DNA from: Candidatus Nomurabacteria bacterium
GTDB taxonomy: Bacteria > Patescibacteriota > Patescibacteriia > UBA1558 > GWA2-36-10
NCBI GenBank assembly: GCA_020632415.1
Contig: JACKFO010000002.1
Span: forward strand, 23,244-87,243
DNA length: 64,000 bases
Direction: 5' to 3'
Shown here: one piece after another, positions 6,105 through 64,000 of the stretch
Layout of the letters: every line of letters starts with the position of its first letter
Position numbering within the stretch: position 1 is the first letter of the stretch
The notes under the pieces: generated by a model
Database searches by the model: none
The model's input: the letters and a program-made list of their open reading frames with translations, nothing else
Told to the model about the DNA's origin: nothing
Translations under genes and position numbers: made by a program

Positions 6105-6833
6105 ATGATTTTTAAAACAGAAGCTTTTGTTTTGCGCGCCATTCCTTGGCGAGAAGCTGATCGTCTTTATTATTTTTTTACTCCACACGAAGGAGTAATT
6201 ACCGGAGTAGTCAGGGCAGCTGCTAAATCTAGCAGTAAGTTAGCTGGACAGCTTTTGCCTTTTGCTAAAGTACAAATTATGATTGGCCGAGGAAAACTAG
6301 ATCATGTTGCGGGCACTAGTACGATTAAGGATTACCAAAATTTAAGAACGGATTTAAAAAATTTGTCATTAGCCGCTTCAATCGTGGAGTTATTTTTGGG
6401 AGAATTATCCAGCGGCGCCAAACAACAAGAGTTTGATTTATTAGAGGAAGTTTTTACTTTATTAAATGAAGAAAATTTAAAATCAGAGGATAAATTGATT
6501 TTGGTCAGAACTTTTTTGTGGAAATTTTTATCCCTAAGTGGTTGGCAGCCACAGTTAGATGCTTGTTTTGTCTGTCAGAAAAGTATTTCGCAAGGAGCGT
6601 ATTTGCCAGGACGTGGTTTAGTTTGTCATCAGCACAATTTGGCTGGGGCTTTGTTAATTAGTCCAGATTTGCTACAATTTTTAAGAGAGATCTTAAAAAC
6701 ATCATTAAAAGATAGTTTGGATTTAAAATTAAATCCAGAATTAAATAAAGAATGGTTGCAGGCTTCTCAGGCTTATTATCAAGAAGTCTATGATCGACCA
6801 TCAAGAGCATTAAAATTATTTGTTTATGGCTAA
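6105..6833 (+). CDS. recO: DNA repair protein RecO
   Basis: N-terminal OB fold plus C-terminal Cys4 zinc finger (CFVCQ...CHQH); ATG immediately after the ileS stop. Confidence 0.8.
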   Translation: MIFKTEAFVLRAIPWREADRLYYFFTPHEGVITGVVRAAAKSSSKLAGQLLPFAKVQIMIGRGKLDHVAGTSTIKDYQNLRTDLKNLSLAASIVELFLGELSSGAKQQEFDLLEEVFTLLNEENLKSEDKLILVRTFLWKFLSLSGWQPQLDACFVCQKSISQGAYLPGRGLVCHQHNLAGALLISPDLLQFLREILKTSLKDSLDLKLNPELNKEWLQASQAYYQEVYDRPSRALKLFVYG

Positions 6834-13307: not shown

Positions 13308-13398
13308 CACGAGAACTTGTCAAAAGTCCGTTCTTTGACATCAGAGTTCAAAATCAAATTGAATACAACTGGGAAACCAAGAGAGGGAGAGAAATCTC

Positions 13399-14772
13399 AT
13401 GAAGAAGCTCAGTTCGCTCTGCATCGCCTTGCTGGCGATCGTTTTTGCTCTGCGTCCGGCTTCGGCCGAAACCTTCACCGTTCCGGACGATGGGACGATT
13501 CAGGATGGTGTGGATGTCACCGGCAGCGGTGATGATATCTACATCAGTCCGGGCGTGTATACCGAAACGGTGTACTTTGATGCGGACACCGTCAGCATCC
13601 ACGGCTTGGAGGCCGACCTGACCACCATCCGCAACGGCACTTTCGTCTTCAACGGCGGATCCACAATGGAAACCGTGCTTCATGATCTCGGCTTCGATGG
13701 TCCCGATGGCGCGGCGATCAGCCTTTTCAATGGCTCTGGCGTGACGGTTCAGAACGTGTTGATACGTGACAAAGAGGGAACGGCCGCGATTTTCGTGGGC
13801 AGCAATTCACATCTCGTCCTCAGCACGGTCTGGGCCTGGAACAATTCCAACGGTGCTCTGCAGGGCTATGCCACGGCCAGTAGCAATTTCGGTCAAATCG
13901 AGATCTACAACGCTCGTTTCGAAGGTAACGCCTTAAACGGTATTCCGACGATGATTCCGCAGATCGAGAATGGCCTTCTGACCTATCGACCCTACCAAAG
14001 CGATGATCGCAACCAGAACTTTGGTGGCGGCATCTACTTGCCTCTGGGCGGCGGTCGAGTCTCGATCTGGCGCAGTCTCTTGGCCAACAATGACGTGAAT
14101 TTCTTGGGCGGCGCTATCAGTGGCGGCAACGATGCCAACATTGATTCAACGATCGTCGATCTGGATCTCTGCACCATTTTCGGCAACGATGCTGGGCAGA
14201 ATGGATCGTTTTTCTATGGTCGCAATGGGAAAATTCGACTGAACATTTCCAATAGCCTGTTCGTCGACAACGGCATCAACGCCTTCGTCGGCAATGTCAG
14301 CTTCGAGGGGCACAACGTGGCCTGGCCGAACAACTACGACATTCCTGGCCTGATCGTCGAGGATCCTCTTTTCTGCGATCCGGATGGTCGCAATTTTCAG
14401 CTCGGCTACAGCTCCTTCTGCCTCCCCGAAAACAACCAGTGGGGGGAGCAGATCGGCGCCTTCGGCGCCGGTGAATGCGATGGAGTCGGTGTCGAGGCGA
14501 TCCAACAGCCGATCAACTTCGGCCTGACAGCCCATCCCAATCCTTTCAATCCCACGACCACCATCAACTTCAATCTGCAGTCGGCCAACCACGTCTCGCT
14601 GATCATCTACGACCTGGAAGGTCGGCTGGTGGCCAATCTGCTCGATGGCATGCTCGGTTCTGGACAGCACAGCGTCAACTTCGACGCCAGCAAGCTGTCC
14701 AGCGGCAGTTACTTCGTCTACATGACCACCAACGACCAGCAGCAGGTGATGAAGTTGCTGCTGCTCAAGTAG
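13399..14772 (+). CDS. secreted beta-helix-like protein with T9SS (Por) C-terminal sorting domain
   Basis: Signal peptide (LLAIVFALRPASA); Gly/Asn-rich parallel beta-helix-like repeats; C-terminus ...PNPFNPTTTINFNL...IYDLEGRLV...SGSYFVYM...KLLLLK typical of the T9SS CTD; SD GGGAGAG. Confidence 0.7.
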   Translation: MKKLSSLCIALLAIVFALRPASAETFTVPDDGTIQDGVDVTGSGDDIYISPGVYTETVYFDADTVSIHGLEADLTTIRNGTFVFNGGSTMETVLHDLGFDGPDGAAISLFNGSGVTVQNVLIRDKEGTAAIFVGSNSHLVLSTVWAWNNSNGALQGYATASSNFGQIEIYNARFEGNALNGIPTMIPQIENGLLTYRPYQSDDRNQNFGGGIYLPLGGGRVSIWRSLLANNDVNFLGGAISGGNDANIDSTIVDLDLCTIFGNDAGQNGSFFYGRNGKIRLNISNSLFVDNGINAFVGNVSFEGHNVAWPNNYDIPGLIVEDPLFCDPDGRNFQLGYSSFCLPENNQWGEQIGAFGAGECDGVGVEAIQQPINFGLTAHPNPFNPTTTINFNLQSANHVSLIIYDLEGRLVANLLDGMLGSGQHSVNFDASKLSSGSYFVYMTTNDQQQVMKLLLLK

Positions 14773-14827
14773 ATCTCAATCACCCGAAGGGCGGGTGTTG
14801 ACTTTATCTCTATGGAAAGGAGTGAGC

Positions 14828-15340
14828 ATGAGGAAACTCATTGTTCCGCTGCTGGCAGTGTTCTTGCTGCTGGCAGGCTGCGACTGCGTTCAGGCTCGCG
14901 GACCGACCACCGTCGATGAGAGTACGGGTCTGGTCTGCGACAACATGGGCAACTCCTGCGACATCATGATCAGCGGCCTCGGCTACGACGAACTCGCCTG
15001 GGAGGTCGAGTTCTCCGGCGTGGACATCAGCGACAACTCCTTCGTGGCGTCCGATTCCAGTCGGGACCTGCTGATCCTGGCGGTTGACAGCGGCGTCAAC
15101 GAAGGCTGTTTCGAGATCAGCTTCTATCCGGTGCTGATGAATTCGACGATCACCGGCGAGGCCTTCTCGAGCGACAAGATGGACACGGCGACGGCATTCC
15201 TGGCCAACATCGGCGAGGGCATCAACGGCGAAAACGGAGGCCGGCAAGTCCTCAAGTGTCTGATCGACAGCCAGTTCGTCAACGGCTACATGATCTGCCG
15301 CACCGACAACCGCGACGGGACGATCAAGTCCGCCGCCTGA
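14828..15340 (+). CDS. lipoprotein (lipobox LLAGC), unknown function
   Basis: Signal peptide plus lipobox; SD GGAAAGGAG; high GC. The track start at 14795 is a likely upstream extension. Confidence 0.55.
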   Translation: MRKLIVPLLAVFLLLAGCDCVQARGPTTVDESTGLVCDNMGNSCDIMISGLGYDELAWEVEFSGVDISDNSFVASDSSRDLLILAVDSGVNEGCFEISFYPVLMNSTITGEAFSSDKMDTATAFLANIGEGINGENGGRQVLKCLIDSQFVNGYMICRTDNRDGTIKSAA

Positions 15341-15395
15341 CCCAGGCTGTGTGCTAGAGGCGTCTAGTGCACAGCCAGAACTCTGAATTCCGCAC

Positions 15396-15436
15396 CCCCG
15401 CATCCGAGCTTGACTTGGATGCGGGGTTCTTTTTTT
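15396..15436 (+). terminator. GC-rich rho-independent terminator closing the high-GC island
   Basis: ccccgcatcc-(11-nt loop)-ggatgcgggg followed by TTCTTTTTTT; an additional hairpin at 15346-15378. Confidence 0.7.
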
Positions 15437-35500: not shown

Positions 35501-38500
35501 AAATGCGGTTACTCCTACTGTGCCAACCGTTCCTGATCAAGTAACTGACTTGATAGCTTATGGGTATAATCAGCAGGCCTTACTTAGTTGGACTGCTCCA
35601 GACAATGGTGGCGCACCTATTTCAGACTATATAGTAGAGTACAAACCTTCATCAGGAAGCGAGTGGGGAATTTTTGATGATGGTACATCTGCAACTCTTA
35701 AAGCGATCGTTACTGGTTTGGAAAACGATATTCAATATGATTTGAGAGTTTCAGCAGTCAATAGTGGTGGCGCTGGTCTGGCTTCTGATCTTGCCACTGC
35801 CACTCCTAGGGCTTTAACAGAATTGGTAGTTGTCATTAACGGTGAAAGTAATTCTGGTGGACAAGCTCATAATAGCGAGGCAACAGAAGAAGAGCTGTCT
35901 CCTACAGAAGAAGTGCAAATATTAAATAATACATCTTTTGTTTTTGAAGATTTAGACATTGGAACTAATAATAATATTGATCATTGTTGTTGGTTGAATT
36001 CAGCGACACAACATGGTTTAGAATTAGAATTAGCTAGTTCCACAAAGGCTAATAATTTTCCAGATAATCCTCAAATTCATTTGATCAAAACTGGCCAAGG
36101 TGGTTCACGTCTTGCTCAGTGGAATGTTGGCGGTACATATTGGACTAAATTTTTAGAAAGAGTAAATGCCGCTAAAACACAATTATCCGCCAATCCCCAA
36201 TGGATAACGTGGATTAGTATAGGTATTAATGACTATTTGGCCGGGACAACGGTTTCGACTTTTAAGACAGAGTTGATTGCTCATATTAATAAAATAAAAG
36301 ATGAATTACCCGGAACCATAGTCATCTTAACTCAATTTCAAGCAATGAGCGCTAACTCTGGGTACCCAACATATAATGTGGTCATGGACGAAATAGCGGC
36401 TTCTGAAAATAATGTTTTTGTTGTCGATTCTACAGGAGCTGCTTTAGACGATGGTAATCATTGGAGTTATTCTGGGCTAAAAGTCGTTGCCGATAGAATG
36501 GTTACGATCACAAACACCCAACTAGGCCTGATCTACCCGGGAGTACCTACTGACCTTAGTGTGAATCCTGGCGCTACTTCTGCCGATCTAACATGGACTG
36601 CTCCAATAGCAAATGGTGGAGAAACTATCACAGATTATCTTATTGAATACAAAACTTCAGCAGAAAGTTCTTGGACTACTTTTTCTGATGGCACTTCTAC
36701 TGACACCACTGCCACTGTCACTGGTTTAGAAGATAGTACAGATTATAATTTTAGGGTTTCAACAGTAAATAGTAATGGAGCAGGAAATCCTTCTTTAACA
36801 GATGCTACTACTACCGATGGCACAGCCCCAGTAAACTCTAGTGTCACTGCTACTCCGACAGATAATTCAGCTACTATCACTTGGACTACAGATGAAGCAG
36901 GATCAAGTATTGTAGATCATGGATTAAATTCTAGTTATGGATCTTCTACTTCAGAGACTGATACTTCTCCTAGAGTCACAGATCATAGTGTCACTCTTTC
37001 CAATCTTCTCTCTTGTACCACTTACCATTACAGAGTCAGATCAAAAGATCTTGCTCAAAACCAAGGTACTTCTTCAGACTCTACTTTCATGACCACAGGA
37101 TGTACTGGAGATGCAGAAGTAGAACAGACTACCAATGACTCTGTTGCCACTTCTACTGGTGCTACAATTAATTTAAATTCAGGCACAGCCAATCTTACTT
37201 TAGATATTCCAGCAGGTTTTGATGAAGATGCTGCAAGTGATGTCGAATTCCAAGTCAATCAATTAACGACTAATACTTTGCTTTTAACTACAGGTAGCCC
37301 TAGTAGCAGAAGCGTTATTGGTTCGCATACTTATGACCTTTCAGCTTTTAGTGACGCTAACACAGCCTTAACTAATTTTGATCAAGCATTAACTCTCACC
37401 TTTACTTATCTAGATAGTGAAGTAGAGGGAATGGATGAATCAAGTCTAGTCATTTACTACTGGGATGGTGATTCTTGGGAAACACTAGATAACTGTTCAG
37501 TTAACACTACAGCCAACACTGTCTCTTGCACCACTACTCACTTTACAACCTTTGCTTTATTTGGGTCAGCTGCCGCAGAAGAATCAGCTGAAGAAGATGT
37601 ATCTGCTGGAGGCGGAGGAATGGCTATAATCCCTTCTCAAGGAGAAGGACAAGCAGACATTCATATTGGCATGCACCAAACAAAGGCAGGAGTAATCTTA
37701 GATAGTCAAAGCATTAATCTTTTAATGTACATTAATTCAGAGTTAGACTTTCAATTAAAAAATACAAACTTTAACAAAAAATTAATCATCAAAGATCTAA
37801 ACATGTTAAGCTCTGAAGCAGAAATAGAGCTTGCTAACCAAATACTAAAATTAAAGCCAGGACAGTCAGCGCTACTAGATCTTAACCACAACCAAATAGA
37901 TGATCTTAAATTAACTTTTAACACTTTACTTAACAATCGTTTAGATTTAACCTTAACATTCTTAACCTCTAGTGATCTCATTAATTTTGCCAATTATAAT
38001 CTTTTAGTTAAAAGATCAGACGATCCAGCAGTTTATTTGATTGAAAGTGGTCAAAAAAGACTTATTCCAAGCGAAAGTGTTTTCTTAAGTTATGGCTTTC
38101 AATGGTCGGATATTGAAATAGATGATGATCTAGAGCAGTATCCTACAGGAGAGGTACTTACTTATCCAGAACATAACTTTCCAGACGGAACTTTAGTTAA
38201 AGAAAAAAACAAACCACAAGTCTATTTATTGGAAGATCATCAAAAAAGATATATTACTAGCGAACAAATCTTCTTAAGCCATAACTTCAAATGGTCAGAT
38301 ATTATTGAAGTAGATACTCTAAGTTCTTATCCTATTGGGCAAGACCTCAGTATTAAGCAACAAAATAATCTCAATATTACTAGAAGTTTAAACTTAGGTA
38401 TGACCGGAGAAGATGTCAGACAATTACAAACATTACTTGCTCAAGACAAAACAGTGTACCCAGAAGGCAAAATAACCGGATACTTTGGACCTCTTACCGA

Positions 38501-38609
38501 ACAAGCTATTCAAAGATTCCAGCTTAAATACCAGATAGTTAACTCAGCGCAAGAGCAGGGCTATGGAGTGTTTGGACCAAAGACTAGAGCTAAAATTAAT
38601 TCCTTATAA
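32550..38609 (+). CDS. giant (2019 aa) multidomain cell-surface protein: 2x LamG-like, several FN3 repeats, SGNH/SASA-type esterase-like domain, C-terminal PG_binding_1 domain
   Basis: N-terminal signal/anchor; two LamG-like modules (LLSDDFTGTTIDTAKW... / LLIDDFTGTTIDSSKW...); FN3 repeats (SWTAP...YDFRVSATN); SGNH blocks GESNSGG / GINDY / DDGNHW (nt ~35826-36510); C-terminal PG-binding repeat (nt ~38391-38606). Confidence 0.8.
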   Translation: MFKNQEKKKKKLKEPVFLLFKLKKSLIFGLILGLIFQTFSLNAPQVQAATLLSDDFTGTTIDTAKWVEYDAAGSGGEAGNIQQNDSLSVTSSNNGTTALVSVDSFSADGLEISSVITTSNGKFILGYGDREWSLAGHRGYLLYNSGSNILGLAWNNNVLKQNVACGTMTSGANYKMKIIPTGFEVYKNDALQCTVTPLTADLVDGYSIFLESNDAISYFDDLLVVGTVSEEATVPAAPTIGTAIAGDTEASISFTPGSNGGSAITGYTVTSNPGAITATGSASPITVTGLTNDTEYTFTVTATNAIGTSDPSAASNAVTPHVTDIFDEAALWLKADAITGLNDGDAVTTWGDSSVYALDATQSTVDYKPTYKTNIINSQPIVRFDGINDLLLTPSTAAAAGITVFTVVKSTDTSSGYFAAFGGNNNAIITGFSNALWEYYSSPRTTLGNISTSEFQIITSRVGSSLTNPISLGADAGRVAPWAGDVAEFLVFKSVLSDTDYNTVYDYLNNKYFSAVDPVEPDAPSELVATPASEQMLLSWTAPASDGGATITDYVVEYKLSSEPTTWTTFDDGVSTETTATVTGLTNNLSYDFRVSATNSVGTGAVSDTATETPALSVPSAPISLSASGGNSDATLSWTAPASDGGAAITDYVVEYKLSSEPTTWTTFDDGVSTETTATVTGLTNNLSYDFRVSATNSVGTGAVSDTATATVEYVLLIDDFTGTTIDSSKWLEIDTAGDGGDTGNVQQNDSLSVANSESGSDEGLNALVSVDSFDDNDLEISAKLTAGGLTLFGYGDRQWNLAGNKAYIIYLSGGTLMGLTWHDASYANSNTSCGTYSAGATYKMTIISTGFEVYKNDVLQCTVSPGDGNLVNNKPIFLESNGATASTFDDVYVTGTYTEPTAPEAPTIGTATADNAQATITFTPGSSGGSPITSYTVSSDPGGITATGSSSPITVTGLTNDTEYTFTVTATNAIGTSDPSAASNAVTPTVPTVPDQVTDLIAYGYNQQALLSWTAPDNGGAPISDYIVEYKPSSGSEWGIFDDGTSATLKAIVTGLENDIQYDLRVSAVNSGGAGLASDLATATPRALTELVVVINGESNSGGQAHNSEATEEELSPTEEVQILNNTSFVFEDLDIGTNNNIDHCCWLNSATQHGLELELASSTKANNFPDNPQIHLIKTGQGGSRLAQWNVGGTYWTKFLERVNAAKTQLSANPQWITWISIGINDYLAGTTVSTFKTELIAHINKIKDELPGTIVILTQFQAMSANSGYPTYNVVMDEIAASENNVFVVDSTGAALDDGNHWSYSGLKVVADRMVTITNTQLGLIYPGVPTDLSVNPGATSADLTWTAPIANGGETITDYLIEYKTSAESSWTTFSDGTSTDTTATVTGLEDSTDYNFRVSTVNSNGAGNPSLTDATTTDGTAPVNSSVTATPTDNSATITWTTDEAGSSIVDHGLNSSYGSSTSETDTSPRVTDHSVTLSNLLSCTTYHYRVRSKDLAQNQGTSSDSTFMTTGCTGDAEVEQTTNDSVATSTGATINLNSGTANLTLDIPAGFDEDAASDVEFQVNQLTTNTLLLTTGSPSSRSVIGSHTYDLSAFSDANTALTNFDQALTLTFTYLDSEVEGMDESSLVIYYWDGDSWETLDNCSVNTTANTVSCTTTHFTTFALFGSAAAEESAEEDVSAGGGGMAIIPSQGEGQADIHIGMHQTKAGVILDSQSINLLMYINSELDFQLKNTNFNKKLIIKDLNMLSSEAEIELANQILKLKPGQSALLDLNHNQIDDLKLTFNTLLNNRLDLTLTFLTSSDLINFANYNLLVKRSDDPAVYLIESGQKRLIPSESVFLSYGFQWSDIEIDDDLEQYPTGEVLTYPEHNFPDGTLVKEKNKPQVYLLEDHQKRYITSEQIFLSHNFKWSDIIEVDTLSSYPIGQDLSIKQQNNLNITRSLNLGMTGEDVRQLQTLLAQDKTVYPEGKITGYFGPLTEQAIQRFQLKYQIVNSAQEQGYGVFGPKTRAKINSL
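32697..33510 (+). repeat. LamG-like+FN3 module, copy 1 of an intragenic duplication
   Basis: Co-linear protein similarity to the copy at 34695-35535 (same LamG-like order; FN3 ending ...TEYTFTVTATNAIGTSDPSAASNAVTP in both); DNA diverged. Confidence 0.7.
34164..34690 (+). repeat. two tandem ~294-bp FN3-encoding repeats, near-identical at DNA level
   Basis: 34199-34388 vs 34493-34682 differ at only a handful of positions (mostly synonymous wobble changes). Confidence 0.8.
34695..35535 (+). repeat. LamG-like+FN3 module, copy 2
   Basis: See copy 1. Confidence 0.7.
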
Positions 38610-38620
38610 GAATAATAAAA

Positions 38621-38647
38621 AATAGTCTCTTGAAGAGATTATTTTTT
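38621..38647 (+). terminator. rho-independent terminator of the giant gene
   Basis: tctctt-ga-agaga hairpin extended by flanking AT pairs, then a T6 run. Confidence 0.55.
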
Positions 38648-38762
38648 ATTTGCATAAAAGAAACAATTTTCTTAATTTATGTTAAGCGAACTAGACAAAT
38701 TTTTGTTTTTAGCTTAGGCTTAAATTAAGAAAAAGAACCTTGTTTAATTTGGAGTCAGAGCA

Positions 38763-38906
38763 ATGCAACGGAAACCGAAGAAGCCTACGTCCCTGATTCA
38801 ACAGGAGATTATTGAAAGACGTTGGATTCAGGTAGTGCCAGGATTTCCTGACAAGTACGGTAGAAGGAGTAGAAAGAGGAGTCAGTCTAAGAAGCGGGAG
38901 GGCTAA
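38763..38906 (+). CDS. tiny basic protein (47 aa), first gene of a three-gene micro-island
   Basis: GGAG SD 8 nt upstream; stop TAA 2 nt before the next ATG; MQRKPKKPTSLIQQEIIERRWIQVVPGFPDKYGRRSRKRSQSKKREG. Confidence 0.35.
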   Translation: MQRKPKKPTSLIQQEIIERRWIQVVPGFPDKYGRRSRKRSQSKKREG

Positions 38907-38908
38907 TC

Positions 38909-39160
38909 ATGTTTTGGAAAATCATGTTAGTATTGGCAGCGTTGTTATTTGTCCTTTTTTGCCTTAAAGCCTTGAAAGGATTCATTTCACGTATGTGCCA
39001 TACCGAAGGCTGTCCTCGTTGTAATGGTCTTTGCTATGCTGAGCGTCGAGATGATCTTTATGTAGAATGCGACAATTGTCATGCCATCTATCATCCTGTT
39101 ACCGGGACATTACACCCAAGCGAGGCTAACAACAATTCGGTTTCTCAGGCAACCATTTAG
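38909..39160 (+). CDS. small membrane-anchored Cys-rich (zinc-ribbon-like) protein
   Basis: SD GGGAGGG; N-terminal TM helix; C-x4-C-x2-C-x3-C...C-x2-C-H cluster. Confidence 0.45.
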   Translation: MFWKIMLVLAALLFVLFCLKALKGFISRMCHTEGCPRCNGLCYAERRDDLYVECDNCHAIYHPVTGTLHPSEANNNSVSQATI

Positions 39161-39174
39161 AAGGAGTGACGATC

Positions 39175-39345
39175 ATGTCAAAACTTTTGTTGGGACTCGC
39201 GGTCTTTGTGCTTGTTTGCATTGTTTGCGGACATTTTCAGCGTAAGACACCCGGAGGACGCGAAGCGATTGATTGGGAAAGGAGCTTTGGCGATCTGAAA
39301 CCAAGATTCAAGTGGAGGATTTCTCCCAAACCACCAGAGGCTTAG
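39175..39345 (+). CDS. tiny membrane protein (56 aa)
   Basis: SD GAAGGAG; N-terminal TM helix (LLLGLAVFVLVCIVC) plus basic tail; terminator-like structure at 39326-39363. Confidence 0.35.
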   Translation: MSKLLLGLAVFVLVCIVCGHFQRKTPGGREAIDWERSFGDLKPRFKWRISPKPPEA

Positions 39346-39412
39346 AGCCGGGTGGTTTTTATTTTTTCTCGAGGCTAGCCAAAAAATGCTTTTTTCTGCT
39401 AAAATAGACTAT

Positions 39413-42337
39413 ATGTCATTAGACTTAAAACAACTAAATAAAGCGCAAAAACAGGCGGTTTTGCATGATCAGGGACCAGCGATGTTGATTGCTGGCGCTG
39501 GGACTGGAAAAACTACGGTAATCACCCAACGCATTGCTTGTTTGATTGAAAAAGCTAAGGCTAAGCCGGAGGATATTTTGGCCGTGACTTTTACAGAAAA
39601 AGCTGCGGGAGAAATGGAAGAGCGCGTTGATCAACTTTTACCTTTGGGTTATTCAGAATTATGGATTCATACTTTTCATGGTTTTGCTGAAAAAATTTTG
39701 AAAGATTATGCTTTGGACATTGGTTTAGCAAATGATTTTAAGTTACTTGATTCCACCGCTGCTTGGATGCTGGTGCGAAACAATTTAGAAAAATTTGATT
39801 TAGATTATTATCGTCCGCTTGGCAATCCAACTAAATTTATTCATGCTTTGCTTTCTCATTTTTCTCGTTGCAAAGATGAGGTTATTTATCCCGAGGATTA
39901 TTTAGCTTATGTAGAAAACTTACAACTTGACCAAGATTCGGCGGCTGACCGGGAAGATGTCGAAAGTGAAATCAAGAGACAAAAAGAAATCGCTAACGCT
40001 TATCATACTTATCAGCAACTTTTGCTTGATCATAGTGCTTTGGATTTTGGCGATTTGATTAATTATACGCTTAAACTTTTTCAAACTCGCCCAAAGATTT
40101 TGAAAAAATTTCGTGAACAATTTAAGTATATTTTAGTTGATGAATTTCAAGATACTAATTGGGCGCAATACGAGCTGATCAAATTACTAGCTGCTCCAAA
40201 TAATAATTTGATGGTTGTCGGAGATGATGATCAAGCGATTTATAAGTTTAGAGGAGCGGCAATTTCTAATATTTTAAGTTTTCAAAAAGATTATCCAGCT
40301 GCCGCTCAAATTTTTTTAACCGACAATTATCGCTCTGGTCAGAAAATTTTGGATACAGCTTACAATTTTATCAAAGCCAATGATCCTGATCGCTTAGAGG
40401 CGCAGCTAAAGGTTGGCAAGAAAAAATTAGATAAAAAATTAACCAGCCACAGTGAAAATGAAGGTGAAGTAAAGGTTTTATCTTTTGCTGATAAAAATTC
40501 TGAAGTAGATGGTATTTTAAATAAAATATTTTCTTTAAAGAAAAAAAACAAAGATTTAAACTGGTCTGATTTTGCTATTTTAGTTAGAGCAAATGATCAA
40601 GCGGCGCCTTTTGTTAGCATGCTTAGAAAAGTTGGCTGGCCACATCAGTTTTTGGCCTCCCGTGGTTTGTATGCTCAAGATATTGTTTTGGATATTTTGG
40701 CTTATTTAAAGATGCTGGATAATTATCATGAGTCAGCTGCTTTATTTCGAATTTTAAGTTTGCCCTGTGTTAATTTAGACATTAAGACCTTGATTAATTT
40801 AAATCATTTGGCTTATAAAAAATCTTGGAGTTTGTATTATACTTTGCAGAGTTATCCAGGTCATTTGAATTTGAATTTAGCTGAACAAAGAACGATTAAT
40901 GAGCTTTTGGAACTAATCAAAAAACATACGGAAATTGTCAAAACAAAATCAGTTTCTCAGATTATTTATATTTGGCTGGAAGAAAGCGGATATTTAAAAT
41001 TATTGACTTTAGAGGACAGTGTTTACAGCCGTGAGCAGTTGCATTTTTTAAATCAGTTTTTTAAAAAAGTTCGTTCTTGGGAAGAGGAGTCGCTGGAGCC
41101 GACAATCAAGCAATTTTTGCAATCAATGGAAATGGAGCTTGAGTCCGGTGAACAAGGCGCCTTAAAACAAGATCAAGAAGCCGGGCCTGATGCGATCAAA
41201 ATTATGACAGTTCATGGCTCAAAGGGTTTGGAGTTCAAGTATGTTTTTATTACAAATTTAGTTCATTTACGTTTTCCAAGTACCGAGCGTCGTGATCCAA
41301 TTGAAATTCCAGAAAATTTTATCAAAGAAATTTTGCCGAGTGGTGACGCACATTTGCAGGAAGAAAGACGCTTATTTTATGTAGCTTTGACTCGCGCTAA
41401 AGAAGCTGTTTATTTAACTTATGCCAAAGATTACGGCGGAACGCGTGAGCGTAAGCCTTCTCGTTTTATTGAAGAAATAAAAATTGCCGCTCAAGATATC
41501 GCAGCTAAAGAAATCAAAGAGCCACCGACAGTTGATCAGAACATTGAGAAAGTAAAAAATGTTATTCCAAAAAGTTTTTCTTTTTCTCAGCTCAAGGCTT
41601 ATGAAACTTGTCCGCGGCAATATTATTATTCTCATGTCGTCAAATTACAAAGCAAAGGAAAGGCAAGCTTTAGTTTTGGTAAAACTATGCATAGCACTTT
41701 GCAAAAGTTTTTTTCCGATATTATTTTGAGTCGTGAAAAACAGCAGGCTGATTTGTTTGGCGAAAAAGCAAAGACTCTTGAGCCAAGCTTAAAAGATTTG
41801 TTGCAATTTTATCAAGATTCTTGGATTGATGATTGGTTTGATGGAGCAGAAGAAAAAGAAAAATATCATCAAGAAGGCGAAAAAATCTTGAAAGAATTTT
41901 ATCAAAAATTTGAGGGCCACTGGCCAGTGCCTTTATTTTTGGAAAAAGGATTTAATCTTAAATTTGGTGAACATTCTTTTAAAGGTGTTTTTGATCGAGT
42001 TGATGTTGATTCTCAAGGTGATTGGGAAATAGTTGATTATAAAACTGGTAAACCAAAAAGTGAAAAAATTACTTTTGAAGATAAAAAACAATTGTTGATT
42101 TATCAGATTGCGGCAACTGAAGTTTTTAATGTTCCAGTGAAAGCTTTGACTTTTTATTATCTAAATAATAATACGCCAATATCTTTTCTTGGCACCGAAA
42201 AAGAAATCGACAAAACCAAAACTTGGATTTTAGAAACCATTGCGTCAATTTTATCTGGAGATTTTACAGCTACTCCAGGGTTTGCTTGTCAAACTTGTGA
42301 TTTTAAGCAGATTTGTCCTTTTGCCAAAAAGAATTAA
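39413..42337 (+). CDS. UvrD/PcrA-type SF1 helicase fused to a C-terminal PD-(D/E)xK nuclease with 4-Cys (Fe-S-type) cluster (AddB/Cas4-like)
   Basis: Helicase motifs I (GAGTGKTT), II (DEFQDT), VI; C-terminus C-x(n)-DRVD...EIVDYKTGK...CQTCDFKQIC. Start at the second in-frame ATG (MSLDLKQLN); the track ORF begins 27 nt earlier. Confidence 0.8.
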   Translation: MSLDLKQLNKAQKQAVLHDQGPAMLIAGAGTGKTTVITQRIACLIEKAKAKPEDILAVTFTEKAAGEMEERVDQLLPLGYSELWIHTFHGFAEKILKDYALDIGLANDFKLLDSTAAWMLVRNNLEKFDLDYYRPLGNPTKFIHALLSHFSRCKDEVIYPEDYLAYVENLQLDQDSAADREDVESEIKRQKEIANAYHTYQQLLLDHSALDFGDLINYTLKLFQTRPKILKKFREQFKYILVDEFQDTNWAQYELIKLLAAPNNNLMVVGDDDQAIYKFRGAAISNILSFQKDYPAAAQIFLTDNYRSGQKILDTAYNFIKANDPDRLEAQLKVGKKKLDKKLTSHSENEGEVKVLSFADKNSEVDGILNKIFSLKKKNKDLNWSDFAILVRANDQAAPFVSMLRKVGWPHQFLASRGLYAQDIVLDILAYLKMLDNYHESAALFRILSLPCVNLDIKTLINLNHLAYKKSWSLYYTLQSYPGHLNLNLAEQRTINELLELIKKHTEIVKTKSVSQIIYIWLEESGYLKLLTLEDSVYSREQLHFLNQFFKKVRSWEEESLEPTIKQFLQSMEMELESGEQGALKQDQEAGPDAIKIMTVHGSKGLEFKYVFITNLVHLRFPSTERRDPIEIPENFIKEILPSGDAHLQEERRLFYVALTRAKEAVYLTYAKDYGGTRERKPSRFIEEIKIAAQDIAAKEIKEPPTVDQNIEKVKNVIPKSFSFSQLKAYETCPRQYYYSHVVKLQSKGKASFSFGKTMHSTLQKFFSDIILSREKQQADLFGEKAKTLEPSLKDLLQFYQDSWIDDWFDGAEEKEKYHQEGEKILKEFYQKFEGHWPVPLFLEKGFNLKFGEHSFKGVFDRVDVDSQGDWEIVDYKTGKPKSEKITFEDKKQLLIYQIAATEVFNVPVKALTFYYLNNNTPISFLGTEKEIDKTKTWILETIASILSGDFTATPGFACQTCDFKQICPFAKKN

Positions 42338-58551: not shown

Positions 58552-58794
58552 ATGCTAGAAGTTAAGAAAAAAGACAATGAGTCTTTTGAGAGTTTGATCC
58601 GAAGATTTACCAAGAAAACCATTCAAAGTGGTAAGATTTTGCAAGCGAAAAAAGTACGTTTTCATACTGGCAAAAGTTCAAGACGTGAACAAAAAGAAAC
58701 TGCTTTACGTCGCATTGACATGACCGATAAGATTGACTACTTAAAACGCGTTGGCAAATTAGATGATTTCTTTAATCGTCGTTATAATAAATAG
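58552..58794 (+). CDS. rpsU: 30S ribosomal protein S21
   Basis: Basic 80-aa protein with the S21 pattern (...RRFTKK...KVRFHTGKSSRREQKE...); SD GAGAGGTG. Confidence 0.8.
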   Translation: MLEVKKKDNESFESLIRRFTKKTIQSGKILQAKKVRFHTGKSSRREQKETALRRIDMTDKIDYLKRVGKLDDFFNRRYNK

Positions 58795-59319: not shown

Positions 59320-60915
59320 ATGCTAACAAAAAGAAAGATAACTGTTTTTCTAATTATTTTAACAGCAGTTATTTTTTTGTTGCCAGATTTAGTCTCGGCT
59401 CAAACCGTCAGTAATTTTGGTGTTAATGATTTAGTTGATACTGGCTTAGGTACTAGAGACATTAGAGAAACAATTGCTTTGATTATCAATGTTATCCTTG
59501 GTTTCTTAGGAATTTTGGCAACTCTAATTATAATTTACGCTGGTTGGACCTGGATGACTTCTCAGGGTGAGGCTGATAAGATTGAAAAAGCTAAAAAAAC
59601 CATAGTCAGCGCAGTGATTGGTCTGGTAATTATTTTAGCTTCTTATGGAATTGCTCGTTTTATTTTAAAACAAATTTCTGACGCTACTGGCTATGATGGC
59701 CCAGGAAGTGGCGGCGGCTATGTTGGTGGAGTTGGTATTGGTGGTGGAATAATCGAGAGTCATTATCCAGCTAGAAACGCCACCGATGTTCCTCGCAATA
59801 CTAATATCTATATTACTTTTAAAGAGCCAATGAATCTTGATGATTTAACGACTGCTGTTGATTGTGATTTTGATTTGTGTGCCAAAGTAGATAATTTAAT
59901 CCTTACTGATCGGACAAATAGCACTGTTTTTGATAATACAAAGTTAAAAGTAATAGTCAGCGCTGATCATAAGGTTTTTGCCTTTAATCCTTATGACACA
60001 GATGCAGGCTTACATCTAGGAAACGCTAATGGTGAGACAGAATATAATTTTGCTTTAAGTAATAATATCCACAAAGAAAACGGGGACTTAGCCTTTGGTT
60101 TAAACGGTTATGATTGGGATTTCACAATTAGCAATGAAATAGACTTGACTCCACCAACAGTGACTTCAGTTATTCCGGTAGCAAGCTCTGTTAATCCTCG
60201 TAATACTGTAGTTCAAGTTAATTTTTCAGAAGCAGTTAATCCAATGCTCGCTTCTGGTGTTTATCCGGATTTTACTAATTTGACAACTAAAAATAGCACA
60301 GCAACAATCATTAGCGGTCAATATTTGATTTCTAATCAATATCAGACTGTAGAATTTTTGACCAATGATTTATGTGGAACAAATTCTTGTGGCGGTGATG
60401 TTTATTGTTTGCCAGCTAATGAAAGTTTGACTTCAGAAGTGACTGACTTAATCAAAGATATGGCTGATAATCAGCTTGATGGAAATGGCGATGGAATAGC
60501 TGGTGGAAATTATATTTGGTCTTTTTCGACTAATGATACGATTGATTTGTCACCTCCAGAAATTAGCTCAATGCAAAGTGTTTCTGATGTTGATCTATCT
60601 GCTCCAGTTCAAGTAAGTTTTAATAAGAATCTTTTGACTTCCTCGGTTAATTCTGAGCATGTTAAATTAGTCAAAACTCCAGCTACGGCGATAAATTATT
60701 GGTTAAACGTCGTTTCTGGAAAAGCGATTAGAATTTCTCATGATAAATTTGATTCTTTGACTCAATATAAACCAACTTTGTTATCTGGCATTCAAGATGT
60801 CTATCAGAATTGTTGGTACCCTTGCGCTTGTGATGACCCAACCGGGCATTCTTGTGCTTGTGATACTGACTTTAGTTTGGAGTGCGCTTCTGGCTTGCAT
60901 TGTGAAGAAAATTAA
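59320..60915 (+). CDS. secreted/membrane protein with N-terminal TrbC/VirB2-like pilin domain and Cys-rich C-terminal extracellular region
   Basis: Signal peptide; two hydrophobic helices split by the short polar loop GWTWMTSQGEADKIEKAKK; Gly-rich linker; paralogous to the next gene. Confidence 0.55.
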   Translation: MLTKRKITVFLIILTAVIFLLPDLVSAQTVSNFGVNDLVDTGLGTRDIRETIALIINVILGFLGILATLIIIYAGWTWMTSQGEADKIEKAKKTIVSAVIGLVIILASYGIARFILKQISDATGYDGPGSGGGYVGGVGIGGGIIESHYPARNATDVPRNTNIYITFKEPMNLDDLTTAVDCDFDLCAKVDNLILTDRTNSTVFDNTKLKVIVSADHKVFAFNPYDTDAGLHLGNANGETEYNFALSNNIHKENGDLAFGLNGYDWDFTISNEIDLTPPTVTSVIPVASSVNPRNTVVQVNFSEAVNPMLASGVYPDFTNLTTKNSTATIISGQYLISNQYQTVEFLTNDLCGTNSCGGDVYCLPANESLTSEVTDLIKDMADNQLDGNGDGIAGGNYIWSFSTNDTIDLSPPEISSMQSVSDVDLSAPVQVSFNKNLLTSSVNSEHVKLVKTPATAINYWLNVVSGKAIRISHDKFDSLTQYKPTLLSGIQDVYQNCWYPCACDDPTGHSCACDTDFSLECASGLHCEEN

Positions 60916-60952
60916 TTTTGATAAATAAAAAATAAAAAGATAATCTAAAAAA

Positions 60953-63900
60953 ATGTTGAAAAAATTACTAGCCACATTTTTACCGCTTAGCATCATCTTC
61001 TTTTGGCGAGCAGAACAAGTTTTTGCTCAAGCCACTGATGGTTTTGGGGTTAATGATTTAGTTAATTCCAATTTAGGGACCAGAGACGTTGTTGGCATCG
61101 TCAATAGCTTAATTAACATCTTCTTGGGTTTCTTGGGGATTATTGCAGTAATTTTGATTATTTACGGTGGCTGGCTCTGGATGACTTCTCAAGGAAGCGC
61201 AGAGCAAATTCAAAAAGCAAAGTTGTTGATCACTAGCGCAGTCATTGGTTTGATCATTATCATGTCTTCTTATTTGATTGCTCGTTTTGTAATTTCTAAG
61301 ATTGTTGACGCAACAGGAGCCGGCGGGGGTGAAGGTGGCTCAGTGGTGATTATTCCACCACCAGTAACTATTCCGACCTGCCCTGAACCGATGGACGGAG
61401 ATGAGGTTAAAATTTGTAAAGTCAGGCCAGATGCTGATAGCGCGCCAGTTGGACAGTACATTACGATTGAAGGTTGGCATTTTGATGCTTATGGAGCTAA
61501 TAGCGCAGTAAAATTTGATAGTTTTTCAGCGGATTTAGTTTCTTGTGGCGGTATTGTTCGTTGGCAAGAAATTGATCCGGTCCATTATCCGGGATATTTT
61601 AGAGTTAAGGCAATTGTTCCGAATATTGCTTTGGGTGATTATAAAATAAATGTTTTTAGCAACGATGGTTGGAATGGTTCTTACCCAGAAGGCCCAGTAG
61701 ATTTTTTTGAAGTTGTTGCTGGAACGCCTGGTCCAGGAATCGCTTGTCTGGTGCCAAACGTTCAAGAACGTGGTTTAGCTATAGATATTCAAGGAATTGG
61801 TTTTTCTTCTGCTGGTACGATTACAATGACTGGTTGGGACGGTAACAATCAAGTTGATCTTGATTTTGATGATTTTGATTCCTGGTCAGACACTTTGATT
61901 AATAATGCGATTATTCCAATTTCTGCTTTATCAAGTGACCTGACAGTGACAGTGAGTGGTTTGACTTCAGGCCCAGAGTGGCTTCAAGTTTATTGTGGAG
62001 ATGCGAGTTTTTGTGCCTCTGGCTGTTGCGCTGCTAATTCTTGTGTTGATGCTAGCGCTTGCTTCACTGCCGCGATTCTTGAAGAAGGTGGTCCAATTAT
62101 TGATCGTATTTCACCAGAGCAAGGTGCTGAAGGAAATATTATTACTGTTTATGGTCGTAACTTTGGCGATAATCCTGGCTCAGTAGTTTTTGAAAACAAT
62201 GTCGGCGGAGAAGTTTCCGGCCTTAATCCAGCAGATGTTAACGCAGAATGTACGCAATATTGGAGCGATGAAATGATCGTTGTCGTTGTACCGGATAACC
62301 TTAGAGATTCAGAGGCAAAAGTTTGGGTTAGAGATCAAGATGGAAATGATAGTAATTTTAAATTTTTTGATGACAGTTTTGGATCTTTGCCAAGTCTTTG
62401 TCGTTTAGAGCCTTTGTCTGGTTCTTTTGAGGATTTAATCACTTTATACGGCATAAAATTCAATGTTGGAGACAAAGCTTCTTTTGGTGGCGTCTTAGAT
62501 CACGATACAGTAATCTTAAGCGACGAAAAAGCCGAGACTAAAGTACCAAATTTAGAAGCTGGAGAGCTTGCGCTTGTTTTGCAAACAGCAAGCGGTGATA
62601 AGGGCAATGCCTTGCCATTTACAGCAGAAGATCAAGCAGGGGGCGATCCGGTGATTAATCAAATTAGTCCAGACAATGGTCCAAAAGGACAATATTTAAC
62701 TATCTTTGGCGCTAATTTCGGTAATGCCATCGGAACAGTTACTTTCAAAAGAGGTGGCGTAGATACTCTGGGAGACTTTAGTTTTCCAGCACAATGTTCT
62801 GACTCTTATTGGAGTAACTCTAGCATTGTTGTTAAAGTGCCAAGTAGTTTGTCGGCAGCAAATGACTATCAGATAGTTGTCAAAAGAAGTAGTGATGGAA
62901 AAATTAGTAACCAAAAGCAATTTGCTGTTGTTTTAGGAACTGCCGGTCCTGGCTTATGTTCATTGCAGCCAGACAATGGTCCGGCTAACGATTCTTTTGC
63001 GATTAATTTAGCAGGAGATAATTTTGGCAACTCCAGTGATGTTGTTAGATTTTTTGATAATCAAACAGCAAATATTAATACTTGGGAAAATCAATATATT
63101 AATGCTCGCGTTCCGCTTAATGCTCAGACTGGTCCGGTAGTAGTTGAGAATGATGGAGTAGTAAGTAATGCTTTAAATTTTGAAGTTGGCTCTTGTAGTG
63201 TTGATAGTGACTGCGGAGCAGGCTATGAATGTTGTTTTCAGGGTACGGGAAATTATTGTGCTTTAGCTGGCTCTTGTCCAGGAGCGCAAAGTTGTGAGTA
63301 TTCATGGACTTTGACGACTGTTGCTGATCCTTTTGGTCTTAAAAAAACTTATCAATGTGAAAATAATTTGCAATCGCCATCTCCTTGGCCTGACGCTTTG
63401 GACGGAGAAGAGTCTCGGTCAGCTTATTTGGATGCAAATGTCGCAGCTTTGTTTACTAGAGATGTTTTGGATAGTGATATCAACTCGACAAATGTCAGAG
63501 TGCAGGCCTGTAATTTTGGTGGTGAATTTGACCCATCTGCCTGTTCTGGTCTGCTTGTTGGTGATTTGTCAATCATTAATCATGATAGCGATCAAGAAGG
63601 TTTTGTTTTTAATCCAGCTGCCAATCTGGATCCTAATCGTTGGTATGTTGTAAAGTTAGGAGTTTTTCATAGTCAGCTTGGCTTTGACATTTGGGATGGT
63701 AATAGTTTTGATTGGCATTTTAGAACACAGGATACAACTTGTCAGGTAACAAGCATTCAAGTCACACCAACGCTTAGTCCGCAAGCTGATCTTTACCTTG
63801 GTGATAGTAAATTTTTCTATGCTACACCACAGGGATCAAATTGTAATGTTTGTGGATCAAATTATAATTGGGAAGATTGGGAGTTGCCAGTGCCAATTGA

Positions 63901-64000
63901 TAATTCTCGAGCAAATATTATTTTTCAAGAAACCGCGAATGTAAATATTTCTCGAGCGCTTTTAGAAGGTCTGCAGGTTACTGAAAATTCTCCAGTGCCG
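60953..64000 (+). CDS. large paralogous pilin-domain surface protein (5' partial; continues past window end) with IPT/TIG-like repeats
   Basis: N-terminus AQATDGFGVNDLV...GGWLWMTSQGSAEQIQKAK...SYLIARF is homologous to 59320; an uninterrupted ORF of >1000 codons to the window edge; repeated ISP(E/D)xGxxGxxxTxxGxNFG units. Confidence 0.6.
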   Translation, partial: MLKKLLATFLPLSIIFFWRAEQVFAQATDGFGVNDLVNSNLGTRDVVGIVNSLINIFLGFLGIIAVILIIYGGWLWMTSQGSAEQIQKAKLLITSAVIGLIIIMSSYLIARFVISKIVDATGAGGGEGGSVVIIPPPVTIPTCPEPMDGDEVKICKVRPDADSAPVGQYITIEGWHFDAYGANSAVKFDSFSADLVSCGGIVRWQEIDPVHYPGYFRVKAIVPNIALGDYKINVFSNDGWNGSYPEGPVDFFEVVAGTPGPGIACLVPNVQERGLAIDIQGIGFSSAGTITMTGWDGNNQVDLDFDDFDSWSDTLINNAIIPISALSSDLTVTVSGLTSGPEWLQVYCGDASFCASGCCAANSCVDASACFTAAILEEGGPIIDRISPEQGAEGNIITVYGRNFGDNPGSVVFENNVGGEVSGLNPADVNAECTQYWSDEMIVVVVPDNLRDSEAKVWVRDQDGNDSNFKFFDDSFGSLPSLCRLEPLSGSFEDLITLYGIKFNVGDKASFGGVLDHDTVILSDEKAETKVPNLEAGELALVLQTASGDKGNALPFTAEDQAGGDPVINQISPDNGPKGQYLTIFGANFGNAIGTVTFKRGGVDTLGDFSFPAQCSDSYWSNSSIVVKVPSSLSAANDYQIVVKRSSDGKISNQKQFAVVLGTAGPGLCSLQPDNGPANDSFAINLAGDNFGNSSDVVRFFDNQTANINTWENQYINARVPLNAQTGPVVVENDGVVSNALNFEVGSCSVDSDCGAGYECCFQGTGNYCALAGSCPGAQSCEYSWTLTTVADPFGLKKTYQCENNLQSPSPWPDALDGEESRSAYLDANVAALFTRDVLDSDINSTNVRVQACNFGGEFDPSACSGLLVGDLSIINHDSDQEGFVFNPAANLDPNRWYVVKLGVFHSQLGFDIWDGNSFDWHFRTQDTTCQVTSIQVTPTLSPQADLYLGDSKFFYATPQGSNCNVCGSNYNWEDWELPVPIDNSRANIIFQETANVNISRALLEGLQVTENSPVP

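Follow-up and report, generated by a model that had tools for sequence, protein, structure and literature searches.

Generic C4 zinc ribbons, such as those of RNA polymerase subunit M/TFS, eS27 and eL43/L37Ae, carry two CxxC knuckles about 15 residues apart on beta-hairpins. The same arrangement is found in ORF2, the second of three short open reading frames (ORFs) lying head to tail between positions 38763 and 39345 of a 64,000-nucleotide stretch of a Candidatus Nomurabacteria genome (contig JACKFO010000002.1; this whole stretch, as analysed here, is called the window). In ORF2, however, the ribbon is fused to an N-terminal transmembrane (TM) anchor and followed by a family-specific YxPxTGxLHPxE tail. 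The archaeal CPxCG_zf micro-proteins (PF19769) resemble the ORF2 family in their tiny size and in the CP-x-C-(G/N/E) first knuckle, and they exist in one- and two-domain versions, to be compared with a double ribbon found in one related locus (L086). CPxCG-type micro-proteins are often missed by annotation. However the Pfam match reaches only an E-value of 0.12 in two of five members, the ORF2 family is bacterial and membrane-anchored, and there is no sign of common descent. The best weak Pfam match to ORF2 (E 0.045) is Lar (PF14354), another small zinc-ribbon protein, but its 14.4 bits remain below the 28.6-bit cut-off, and Lar is a prophage product without a TM helix, whereas ORF2 has no phage context.

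Two further comparisons concern ORF3, the last of the three, and the locus itself. ORF3 is comparable to Hok/Fst-like type I toxins and class III holins in size (56 aa), N-terminal TM helix and charged tail; but it lacks sequence similarity to them, an endolysin and a phage neighbourhood, and a crude consensus scan of the minus strand in 38400-39600, from which host promoters may differ, found no antisense promoter. Moreover, differently from type I toxins, ORF3 appears to be co-transcribed behind ORF2 with a strong Shine-Dalgarno (SD) site and not translationally silenced. The locus recalls flexible genomic islets, a comparison drawn from general knowledge: it lies within conserved core flanks (atpC and a 135-aa gene on one side, a helicase gene and pheST on the other), its content differs per lineage and it also has local promoter/terminator repeats. 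On the other hand, its scale is much smaller (0.3-7 kb) and it has no glycosyltransferase or O-antigen content.

Our preferred reading, to which we assign as a whole a probability of about 0.6, is that the three ORFs form an operon in which ORF2 would encode a membrane-tethered zinc-ribbon adaptor. To judge from its conservation in relatives, ORF2 is a real gene and the sole conserved gene of the block.

ORF2 and its family

ORF2 (83 aa) begins with a TM helix at about residues 2-26, with a 15-residue hydrophobic peak of 3.3 on the Kyte-Doolittle (KD) scale, continues with a C4 zinc ribbon (C35-P-x-C38 ... C54-x-x-C57) and ends with a conserved tail, Y61-x-P63-x-T-G-x-L-H-P-x-E72, whose family form is [YF]-x-P-x-T-G-x-L-H-P-x-E. 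In the alignment of the family C35, P36, C54, C57 and P63 are invariant and the TM helix is also kept; C38 is retained in four of the five domain copies, and in the 87-aa orthologue described below its position is displaced, giving CPxxxC. The AlphaFold2 model places a helix at residues 2-26 and strands at 31-35, 40-46 and 52-54 (mean predicted local distance difference test score 75.5, and 74-84 over the domain), and the family profile matches in the PDB the zinc ribbons RpoM, eS27 and L37Ae (E 1e-4 to 1e-2). With canonical knuckle spacing as well as beta-hairpins, the predicted fold is a generic C4 zinc ribbon, and the original prediction of an N-terminal TM helix followed by a zinc-ribbon-like cluster is thus supported by the conserved Cys ligands, the hydrophobic peak, the PDB matches and the model. 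The search of the whole ORF2 model with Foldseek gave no significant structural neighbour in the PDB or among viral models, and no match of the family to Pfam, NCBIfam, PHROG or PADLOC reaches threshold. In the curated zinc-ribbon families checked (Pfam Lar_restr_allev, Zn_ribbon_4/5, CPxCG_zf and Zn_ribbon_RPB9, besides NCBIfam) the best scores are 14.3-14.4 bits, i.e. below the cut-offs of 24-28.6.

Relatives were collected by a synteny search based on the helicase (80 Patescibacteria loci returned), by tblastn with the peptides and by an exhaustive hidden Markov model (HMM) search. The shared gene order is atpA-G-D-C, a 135/149-aa gene, a variable region, the helicase and pheS. A 73-aa copy of ORF2 directly upstream of the helicase was found by tblastn in locus L006, and the exhaustive HMM search added two further homologues, one full-length with 87 aa (42% identity over 69 aa, pairwise E 7e-16) and one of 100 aa with a tandem pair of ribbons. 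The 87-aa gene lies behind the peptidoglycan (PG)-binding C-terminus of a surface protein in L085, and ahead of the helicase, with atp genes upstream, in L088 and L099 (JGI contigs of 108 and 428 kb); the copy of L086, with two tandem ribbons over at least 100 aa, is located immediately upstream of the helicase. L005 has no ORF2 gene, though its helicase is 94% identical to that of L006 over the N-terminal 215 aa, and no ORF2 relative was found in the remaining 75 or so more distant helicase loci. Concerning the other searches, a degenerate motif scan of metagenomes brought up L088 and L099 together with 12 zinc-knuckle proteins that are unrelated, a metagenome DNA scan for the helicase promoter/start pattern gave no match, the pattern being too strict (L088 differs at one base), and word-index searches of 5.8 billion proteins with all three peptides returned only the queries themselves.

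Between lineages the ribbons are 26-60% identical, whereas identity is 80-94% in the helicase N-terminus and near 90% in AtpD; the ORF2 family is thus fast-evolving. Each ORF2 orthologue retains an SD and a terminator and has a higher GC content than its neighbours; when the loci were aligned as DNA, the multiple alignment was informative only at the helicase promoter. As far as the sequences found indicate, the family is confined to a narrow Patescibacteria clade and occupies the same locus in each lineage. Since diverged orthologues share this locus in four related lineages, ORF2 does not seem to have been recently imported as it stands.

In the public annotation, on an 842-kb NCBI contig that holds the exact ORF2 sequence, ORF2 corresponds to H6761_00300, a 55-aa protein starting at the internal Met29, from which the conserved TM helix is removed. 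Because this helix is conserved and an SD precedes the long form in every lineage, the 83-aa start is correct and the 55-aa model truncated. Identical copies of ORF2 are present on four essentially identical metagenome contigs. The strain is carried by the samples SRR12358676, SRR14234111, ERZ28655857 and ERZ27309364. It had been anticipated that automated annotation would overlook such short genes; the NCBI annotation indeed has only the 55-aa form of ORF2, and ORF1 is called in none of the four metagenome contigs.

Two groups of database matches were discarded as homologues. Giant adhesins were the top matches of the exhaustive HMM search (E 1e-47), but their scores are sums of weak matches (173 bits over 26 stretches) and they were rejected because the Cys positions are unmatched; DUF4379-like multi-ribbon proteins from the same search were judged non-specific. 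Residues 50-71 of ORF2, with the tail 'LYVECDNCHAIYHPVTGTLHP', are identical at 11 of 22 positions to an adhesin repeat, 'LYVDGxxVxxxYDPxTGTLTP' (P0003, P0004, P0008 and P0009). This likeness is probably a convergent beta-hairpin motif, with summation over repeats inflating the HMM E-values.

The three-gene block and its proposed working

The original prediction had described a compositionally distinct block of three ORFs of 47, 83 and 56 aa, each with a strong SD in a host mostly without them, closed by a terminator-like structure. All of this was borne out, with the following features:

38614-38650, plus strand: intrinsic terminator of the giant surface-protein gene, which is the upstream boundary of the small-gene unit (18-nt inverted repeat; fold -15.3 kcal/mol, z -5.0)
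38653-38762, plus strand: putative promoter and leader of the small operon, with a candidate TTGCAT-17-TAATTT at about 38653-38681, read by eye
38661-38745, plus strand: long hairpin of the presumed leader before ORF1 (-25.4 kcal/mol, z -2.5; perfect 13-nt inverted repeat 38667-38679 / 38721-38733)
38763-38906, plus strand: ORF1, 47 aa; SD GGAG at 38751-38754, 8-nt spacer to the ATG
38909-39160, plus strand: ORF2, 83 aa; SD GGGAGGG at 38896-38902, 6-nt spacer to the ATG
39175-39345, plus strand: ORF3, 56 aa from the ATG; SD AAGGAG at 39161-39166, 8-nt spacer
39328-39366, plus strand: intrinsic terminator closing the small operon, a hairpin (39328-39358) plus U-tract (-15.6 kcal/mol, z -3.2)

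The TAA of ORF1 (38904-38906) is placed 2 nt ahead of the ATG of ORF2, whose SD falls within the last codons of ORF1, and 14 nt separate the stop of ORF2 from the start of ORF3. An in-frame GTG at 39166, upstream of the ORF3 ATG, would give an alternative product of 59 aa. The stop codon of ORF3 sits in the loop of the closing terminator; the T-tract of this terminator, TTTTTATTTTT(T/A)CTCG, is found again behind the ORF2 orthologue of L088, with an alignment score of 27 against a shuffle maximum of 23 for a low-complexity sequence. A consensus promoter scan found no site in the leader region 38653-38762.

Block GC content is 45.4% compared with a window mean of 36.5% (96.6th percentile among 614-nt windows); GC and GC skew are both above the flanks, and intergenic DNA has about 30% GC. 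GC at third codon positions (GC3) is 0.52-0.53 in ORF1, 0.39 in ORF2 and 0.46 in ORF3, the host mean being 0.287, and for each ORF it is higher than expected for that peptide from host codon usage (P<0.01; 0.26 expected for ORF1). An SD is found in only one of the 46 long ORFs of the window, and that ORF belongs to another foreign-looking GC-rich block. GAGG sites also precede two small host genes missed by our 100-aa ORF filter, which encode a MerR-family regulator of 84 aa (2675-2929) and S21 of 80 aa (58552-58794); both conform to host codon usage, so the host is presumably able to use SD sites. In 2000 dinucleotide shuffles a set of three ATG ORFs, each with an SD and 40 aa or more and together covering 567 of 634 nt, never arose, and a hydrophobic peak of TM grade was reached by none of 3838 random ORFs of matching composition. 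The block is probably, on these grounds, a self-contained three-gene micro-protein operon between two Rho-independent terminators.

From 38730 onward the window is matched at 99.7% by a metagenome contig (L003; ENA ERZ28655857 scaffold_90117), whose first 53 nt have no match anywhere in the 64-kb window. This divergence upstream of 38730 is either a strain-level structural variant just ahead of ORF1 or a chimeric contig end.

ORF1 is as basic as had been claimed (isoelectric point 11.6, net charge +11), with a charge density reached by 0.26% of random ORFs. ORF3 likewise has the expected TM helix at its N-terminus (LLLGLAVFVLVCIVC, 15-residue KD peak 3.3) and a basic tail, with an isoelectric point of 9.9, and it is called as a gene in three metagenome contigs. 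No relatives of either were found in the index of 5.8 billion proteins, which gave only identical copies of ORF3, in the 100 fetched loci or among GenBank phages, and a scan of viral contigs with ORF3 was also negative. L088 has no ORF1 equivalent and carries behind its ORF2 a different SD-led ORF of 57 aa with Cys residues and a TM segment (ORFb); L006 possibly has a 36-aa TM ORF ahead of its ORF2. Pairwise comparison of these companions (ORF1, ORF3, ORFb of L088 and the 36- and 55-aa ORFs of L006) showed no likeness above shuffles. We also considered whether the 3' end of ORF3 with its terminator descends from an ancestral ORF2 3' end and rejected it, the alignment scores against L006 and against ORF2 being at shuffle level. 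Since ORF1 and ORF3 depart strongly from random expectation in charge and hydrophobicity, they are likely to be coding and probably young genes; we consider a functional ORF3 the better bet, and for ORF1 the chances appear about even. Both are probably lineage-specific orphans, either young or rapidly replaced.

It could be argued that only ORF2 is a gene, ORF1 being a structured leader that is not translated, or else an upstream ORF without function, and ORF3 a chance ORF in the 3' untranslated region. We regard this as rather unlikely, but several data agree with it: neither ORF1 nor ORF3 has a homologue, the relatives have nothing or unrelated ORFs at their positions, the leader forms a hairpin, the GC profile of ORF1 is flat or inverted across codon positions and ORF1 is never called as a gene; in addition single ORFs of 47-56 codons are, by estimate, not rare at 45% GC. 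However three SD-led ORFs with 6-8 nt spacers tile one strand nearly without gaps, as in none of the shuffles; the TM segment of ORF3 and the charge of ORF1 (top 0.26%) are exceptional among random ORFs; a non-coding stretch of 45% GC would be odd beside intergenic DNA of about 30%; and ORF3 has been called in three contigs.

According to the operon reading, the block would be transcribed with its own leader and initiated in an SD-dependent manner, with translational coupling from ORF1 to ORF2. The product of ORF2 would be a bitopic membrane protein with its N-terminal helix inserted in the cytoplasmic membrane and its zinc ribbon facing the cytoplasm, a compartment in which Cys4-Zn sites are stable; ribbon and tail may act as a membrane-tethered module binding a protein or nucleic-acid partner. 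ORF3 would provide a companion single-pass TM peptide with a basic tail, and ORF1 a basic peptide coupled to ORF2.

Several points weigh against this interpretation. All three ORFs are known here from sequence alone, and the role of ORF2 as a binding adaptor is deduced only from its fold. Gene calling passes over ORF1 in the four contigs mentioned above, its GC3 is above its GC at first positions, and purifying selection on ORF1 and ORF3 is not demonstrable because both are without homologues. The ORF2 family stays GC-richer than the genome in every lineage; simple vertical descent from long ago leaves this unexplained, and replacement time and again from a different gene pool fits better. Finally, the charges flanking the TM helix of ORF2 are roughly balanced in the window and in L006, leaving the topology ambiguous, and by eye they favour an N-in/C-out orientation in the 87-aa orthologue.

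The comparison adds to the largely unannotated micro-proteome of Patescibacteria a comparatively validated small-protein family (TM anchor, zinc ribbon and tail motif), and it corrects the truncated public annotation of ORF2. The locus is also a small natural case in which SD-led micro-genes turn over rapidly beside leaderless core genes, and the relatives supply comparison states, with the module present, absent, duplicated or replaced, by which small-gene birth and loss and dual initiation in reduced genomes become testable. It should be noted, however, that the wider significance of the ORF2 family is limited for the present, since only a handful of uncultured lineages carry it.

Topology, turnover and origin of the locus

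With the opposite topology ORF2 would be a signal-anchored protein with an extracellular Cys-rich domain, holding disulfides or metal, and it would work with the variable surface protein in host-cell attachment or phage evasion. Both the orientation and the role appear unlikely to us. ORF2 follows directly behind the gene of the PG-binding surface protein in the window and in L085 and L088, its quick divergence is of a kind often shown by surface-exposed proteins, the flanking charges do not clearly favour C-in, and the window and 87-aa copies hold extra Cys residues beyond the four ligands. On the other side, the gene preceding the L006 copy does not encode a surface protein, the canonical four-Cys zinc-ribbon pattern is typical of cytoplasmic proteins, and a terminator separates the surface-protein gene, so that ORF2 is presumably transcribed apart from it.

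The content between the core flanks differs in the loci compared:

Window: 2019-aa surface protein, ORF1, ORF2, ORF3
L088: surface protein of about 620 aa, ORF2 orthologue, ORFb
L006: 188-aa gene, possibly a 36-aa ORF, ORF2 orthologue
L005: SulP transporter, 179-aa gene

The ORF2 module of L006 is flanked by a 40-nt direct repeat composed of terminator tail and helicase promoter (5658-5697 / 5977-6016), and in L088 each of two small-ORF modules is preceded by the same 23-nt repeat (6045-6067 / 6425-6447). Such local direct repeats suggest that modules come and go through duplication or through recombination between repeats. In the syntenic loci no integrase, transposase, endolysin or phage gene was found. 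An integron-cassette/attC reading was dropped: there are no hairpins between the ORFs, and no RYYYAAC/GTTRRRY cores were seen in an inspection made by eye only. On the sequences compared, the locus is an indel-prone intergenic islet of a Parcubacteria-type chromosome, a hot-spot of turnover rather than a mobile element. The 188- and 179-aa genes (L006 4932-5498 and L005 5393-5932) are GC-rich (44-48%) paralogues of the 135/149-aa gene that follows atpC.

A more specific possibility is that the ORF2-type module, consisting of a promoter copy, SD, gene and terminator, is an exchangeable mini-cassette without a recombinase of its own, swapped repeatedly into the terminator/promoter junction upstream of the helicase. 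The copies would come from a gene pool of higher GC content, common to these Patescibacteria or to their unknown phages. Such exchange would account for the persistently foreign codon composition, the flanking direct repeats and the presence/absence polymorphism between near-identical relatives, but we consider it quite improbable. If true, the fast-evolving ORF2 product could act in conflict, phage exclusion or episymbiont-host interaction, and ORF1 and ORF3 could be newly born genes riding on the same transcript.

The original prediction had likened the block to small-membrane-protein cassettes of phage or plasmid descent, with products like toxins or holins or with subunits accessory to a defence module. 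Taken as a recent acquisition, with the last of these serving the downstream helicase-nuclease, this explanation now has a low probability as well. It would agree with the synonymous-site GC above host expectation in all three ORFs, with SD sites in an SD-poor genome, with the small TM proteins encoded, with the variable gene content of the locus and the direct repeat around the L006 module, and with the fact that L005 and L006 differ by this module while their helicases are nearly identical. However no relatives were found in IMG/VR, GenBank phages, PLSDB plasmids, PHROGs, PADLOC or viral folds, mobility and lysis genes are missing from every syntenic locus, and in several lineages this chromosomal position is taken by diverged orthologues of ORF2. 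As for holins, there is no PHROG or Pfam holin match, the genes on either side encode a surface protein and a helicase, and viral relatives are lacking; PADLOC gave nothing for the peptides and, as reported above, the crude consensus scan found no antisense promoter.

The proposed functional link with the helicase-nuclease, for which co-occurrence had been suggested as a check, was not supported either. The helicase scores on GajB HMMs, in line with a defence system, but it matches PcrA, UvrD and Rep models equally well and has no GajA-like neighbour; by sequence, its GajB matches are generic UvrD similarity. It is a core gene, syntenic with pheST in more than 80 Patescibacteria loci without the peptides, distant relatives among them, and a terminator and a separate helicase promoter stand between cassette and helicase.

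A structured RNA encoded by the GC- and purine-rich stretch, with incidental ORFs, had been named as the finding that would overturn the prediction and is very improbable, since, apart from the higher GC and GC skew, the data oppose it: Rfam gave no match at gathering threshold in the window nor at E<0.1 inside the ORFs (a permissive search found only chance-level matches, most of them at the upstream terminator), there is neither a tRNA nor a tmRNA, and ORF2 is conserved across lineages as protein and not as DNA.

Flanking genes and other observations in the window

Upstream of the block the window contains atpA, atpG, atpD, atpC, the 135-aa gene and the gene of the 2019-aa surface protein, which combines fn3, SASA esterase and PG-binding domains; downstream come the gene of the PcrA/UvrD helicase joined to a PD-(D/E)XK nuclease, then a 130-aa gene and pheST. 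The promoter scan placed one further element outside the cassette:

39376-39415, plus strand: helicase-nuclease promoter, TAGCCA-18-TAAAAT, 7 nt from the ATG at 39413

The pattern TTGCCA/TAGCCA-17/18-TAAAAT-7 nt-ATG is kept in L005, L006, L086 and L088. Because this conserved promoter ends 7 nt before the ATG at 39413, the helicase likely starts there and not at 39386, the start of the longest ORF, and for the same short distance its mRNA is probably leaderless. Upstream of most long host ORFs a TAAAAT/TATAAT-like -10 box stands 6-14 nt from the start codon and an SD is lacking, and this proximity, as read from the sequence, implies leaderless mRNAs.

A sharply bounded block of 2 kb (13350-15420) has 52-62% GC in a genome of 36.5% GC. 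Its ORF at 13399-14772 (457 aa, GC3 0.72, SD-led) carries the Por_Secre_tail sorting domain of the type IX secretion system, typical of Bacteroidota, and the ORF at 14810-15403 on the minus strand has no Pfam match; the block looks like foreign DNA or an assembly chimera. Finally, two adjacent paralogous secreted proteins with the common N-terminal motif 'FGVNDLV..LGTRD' are encoded at 59320-60915 and 60944-64000, the second of which runs past the window end and is hence missing from ORF lists.

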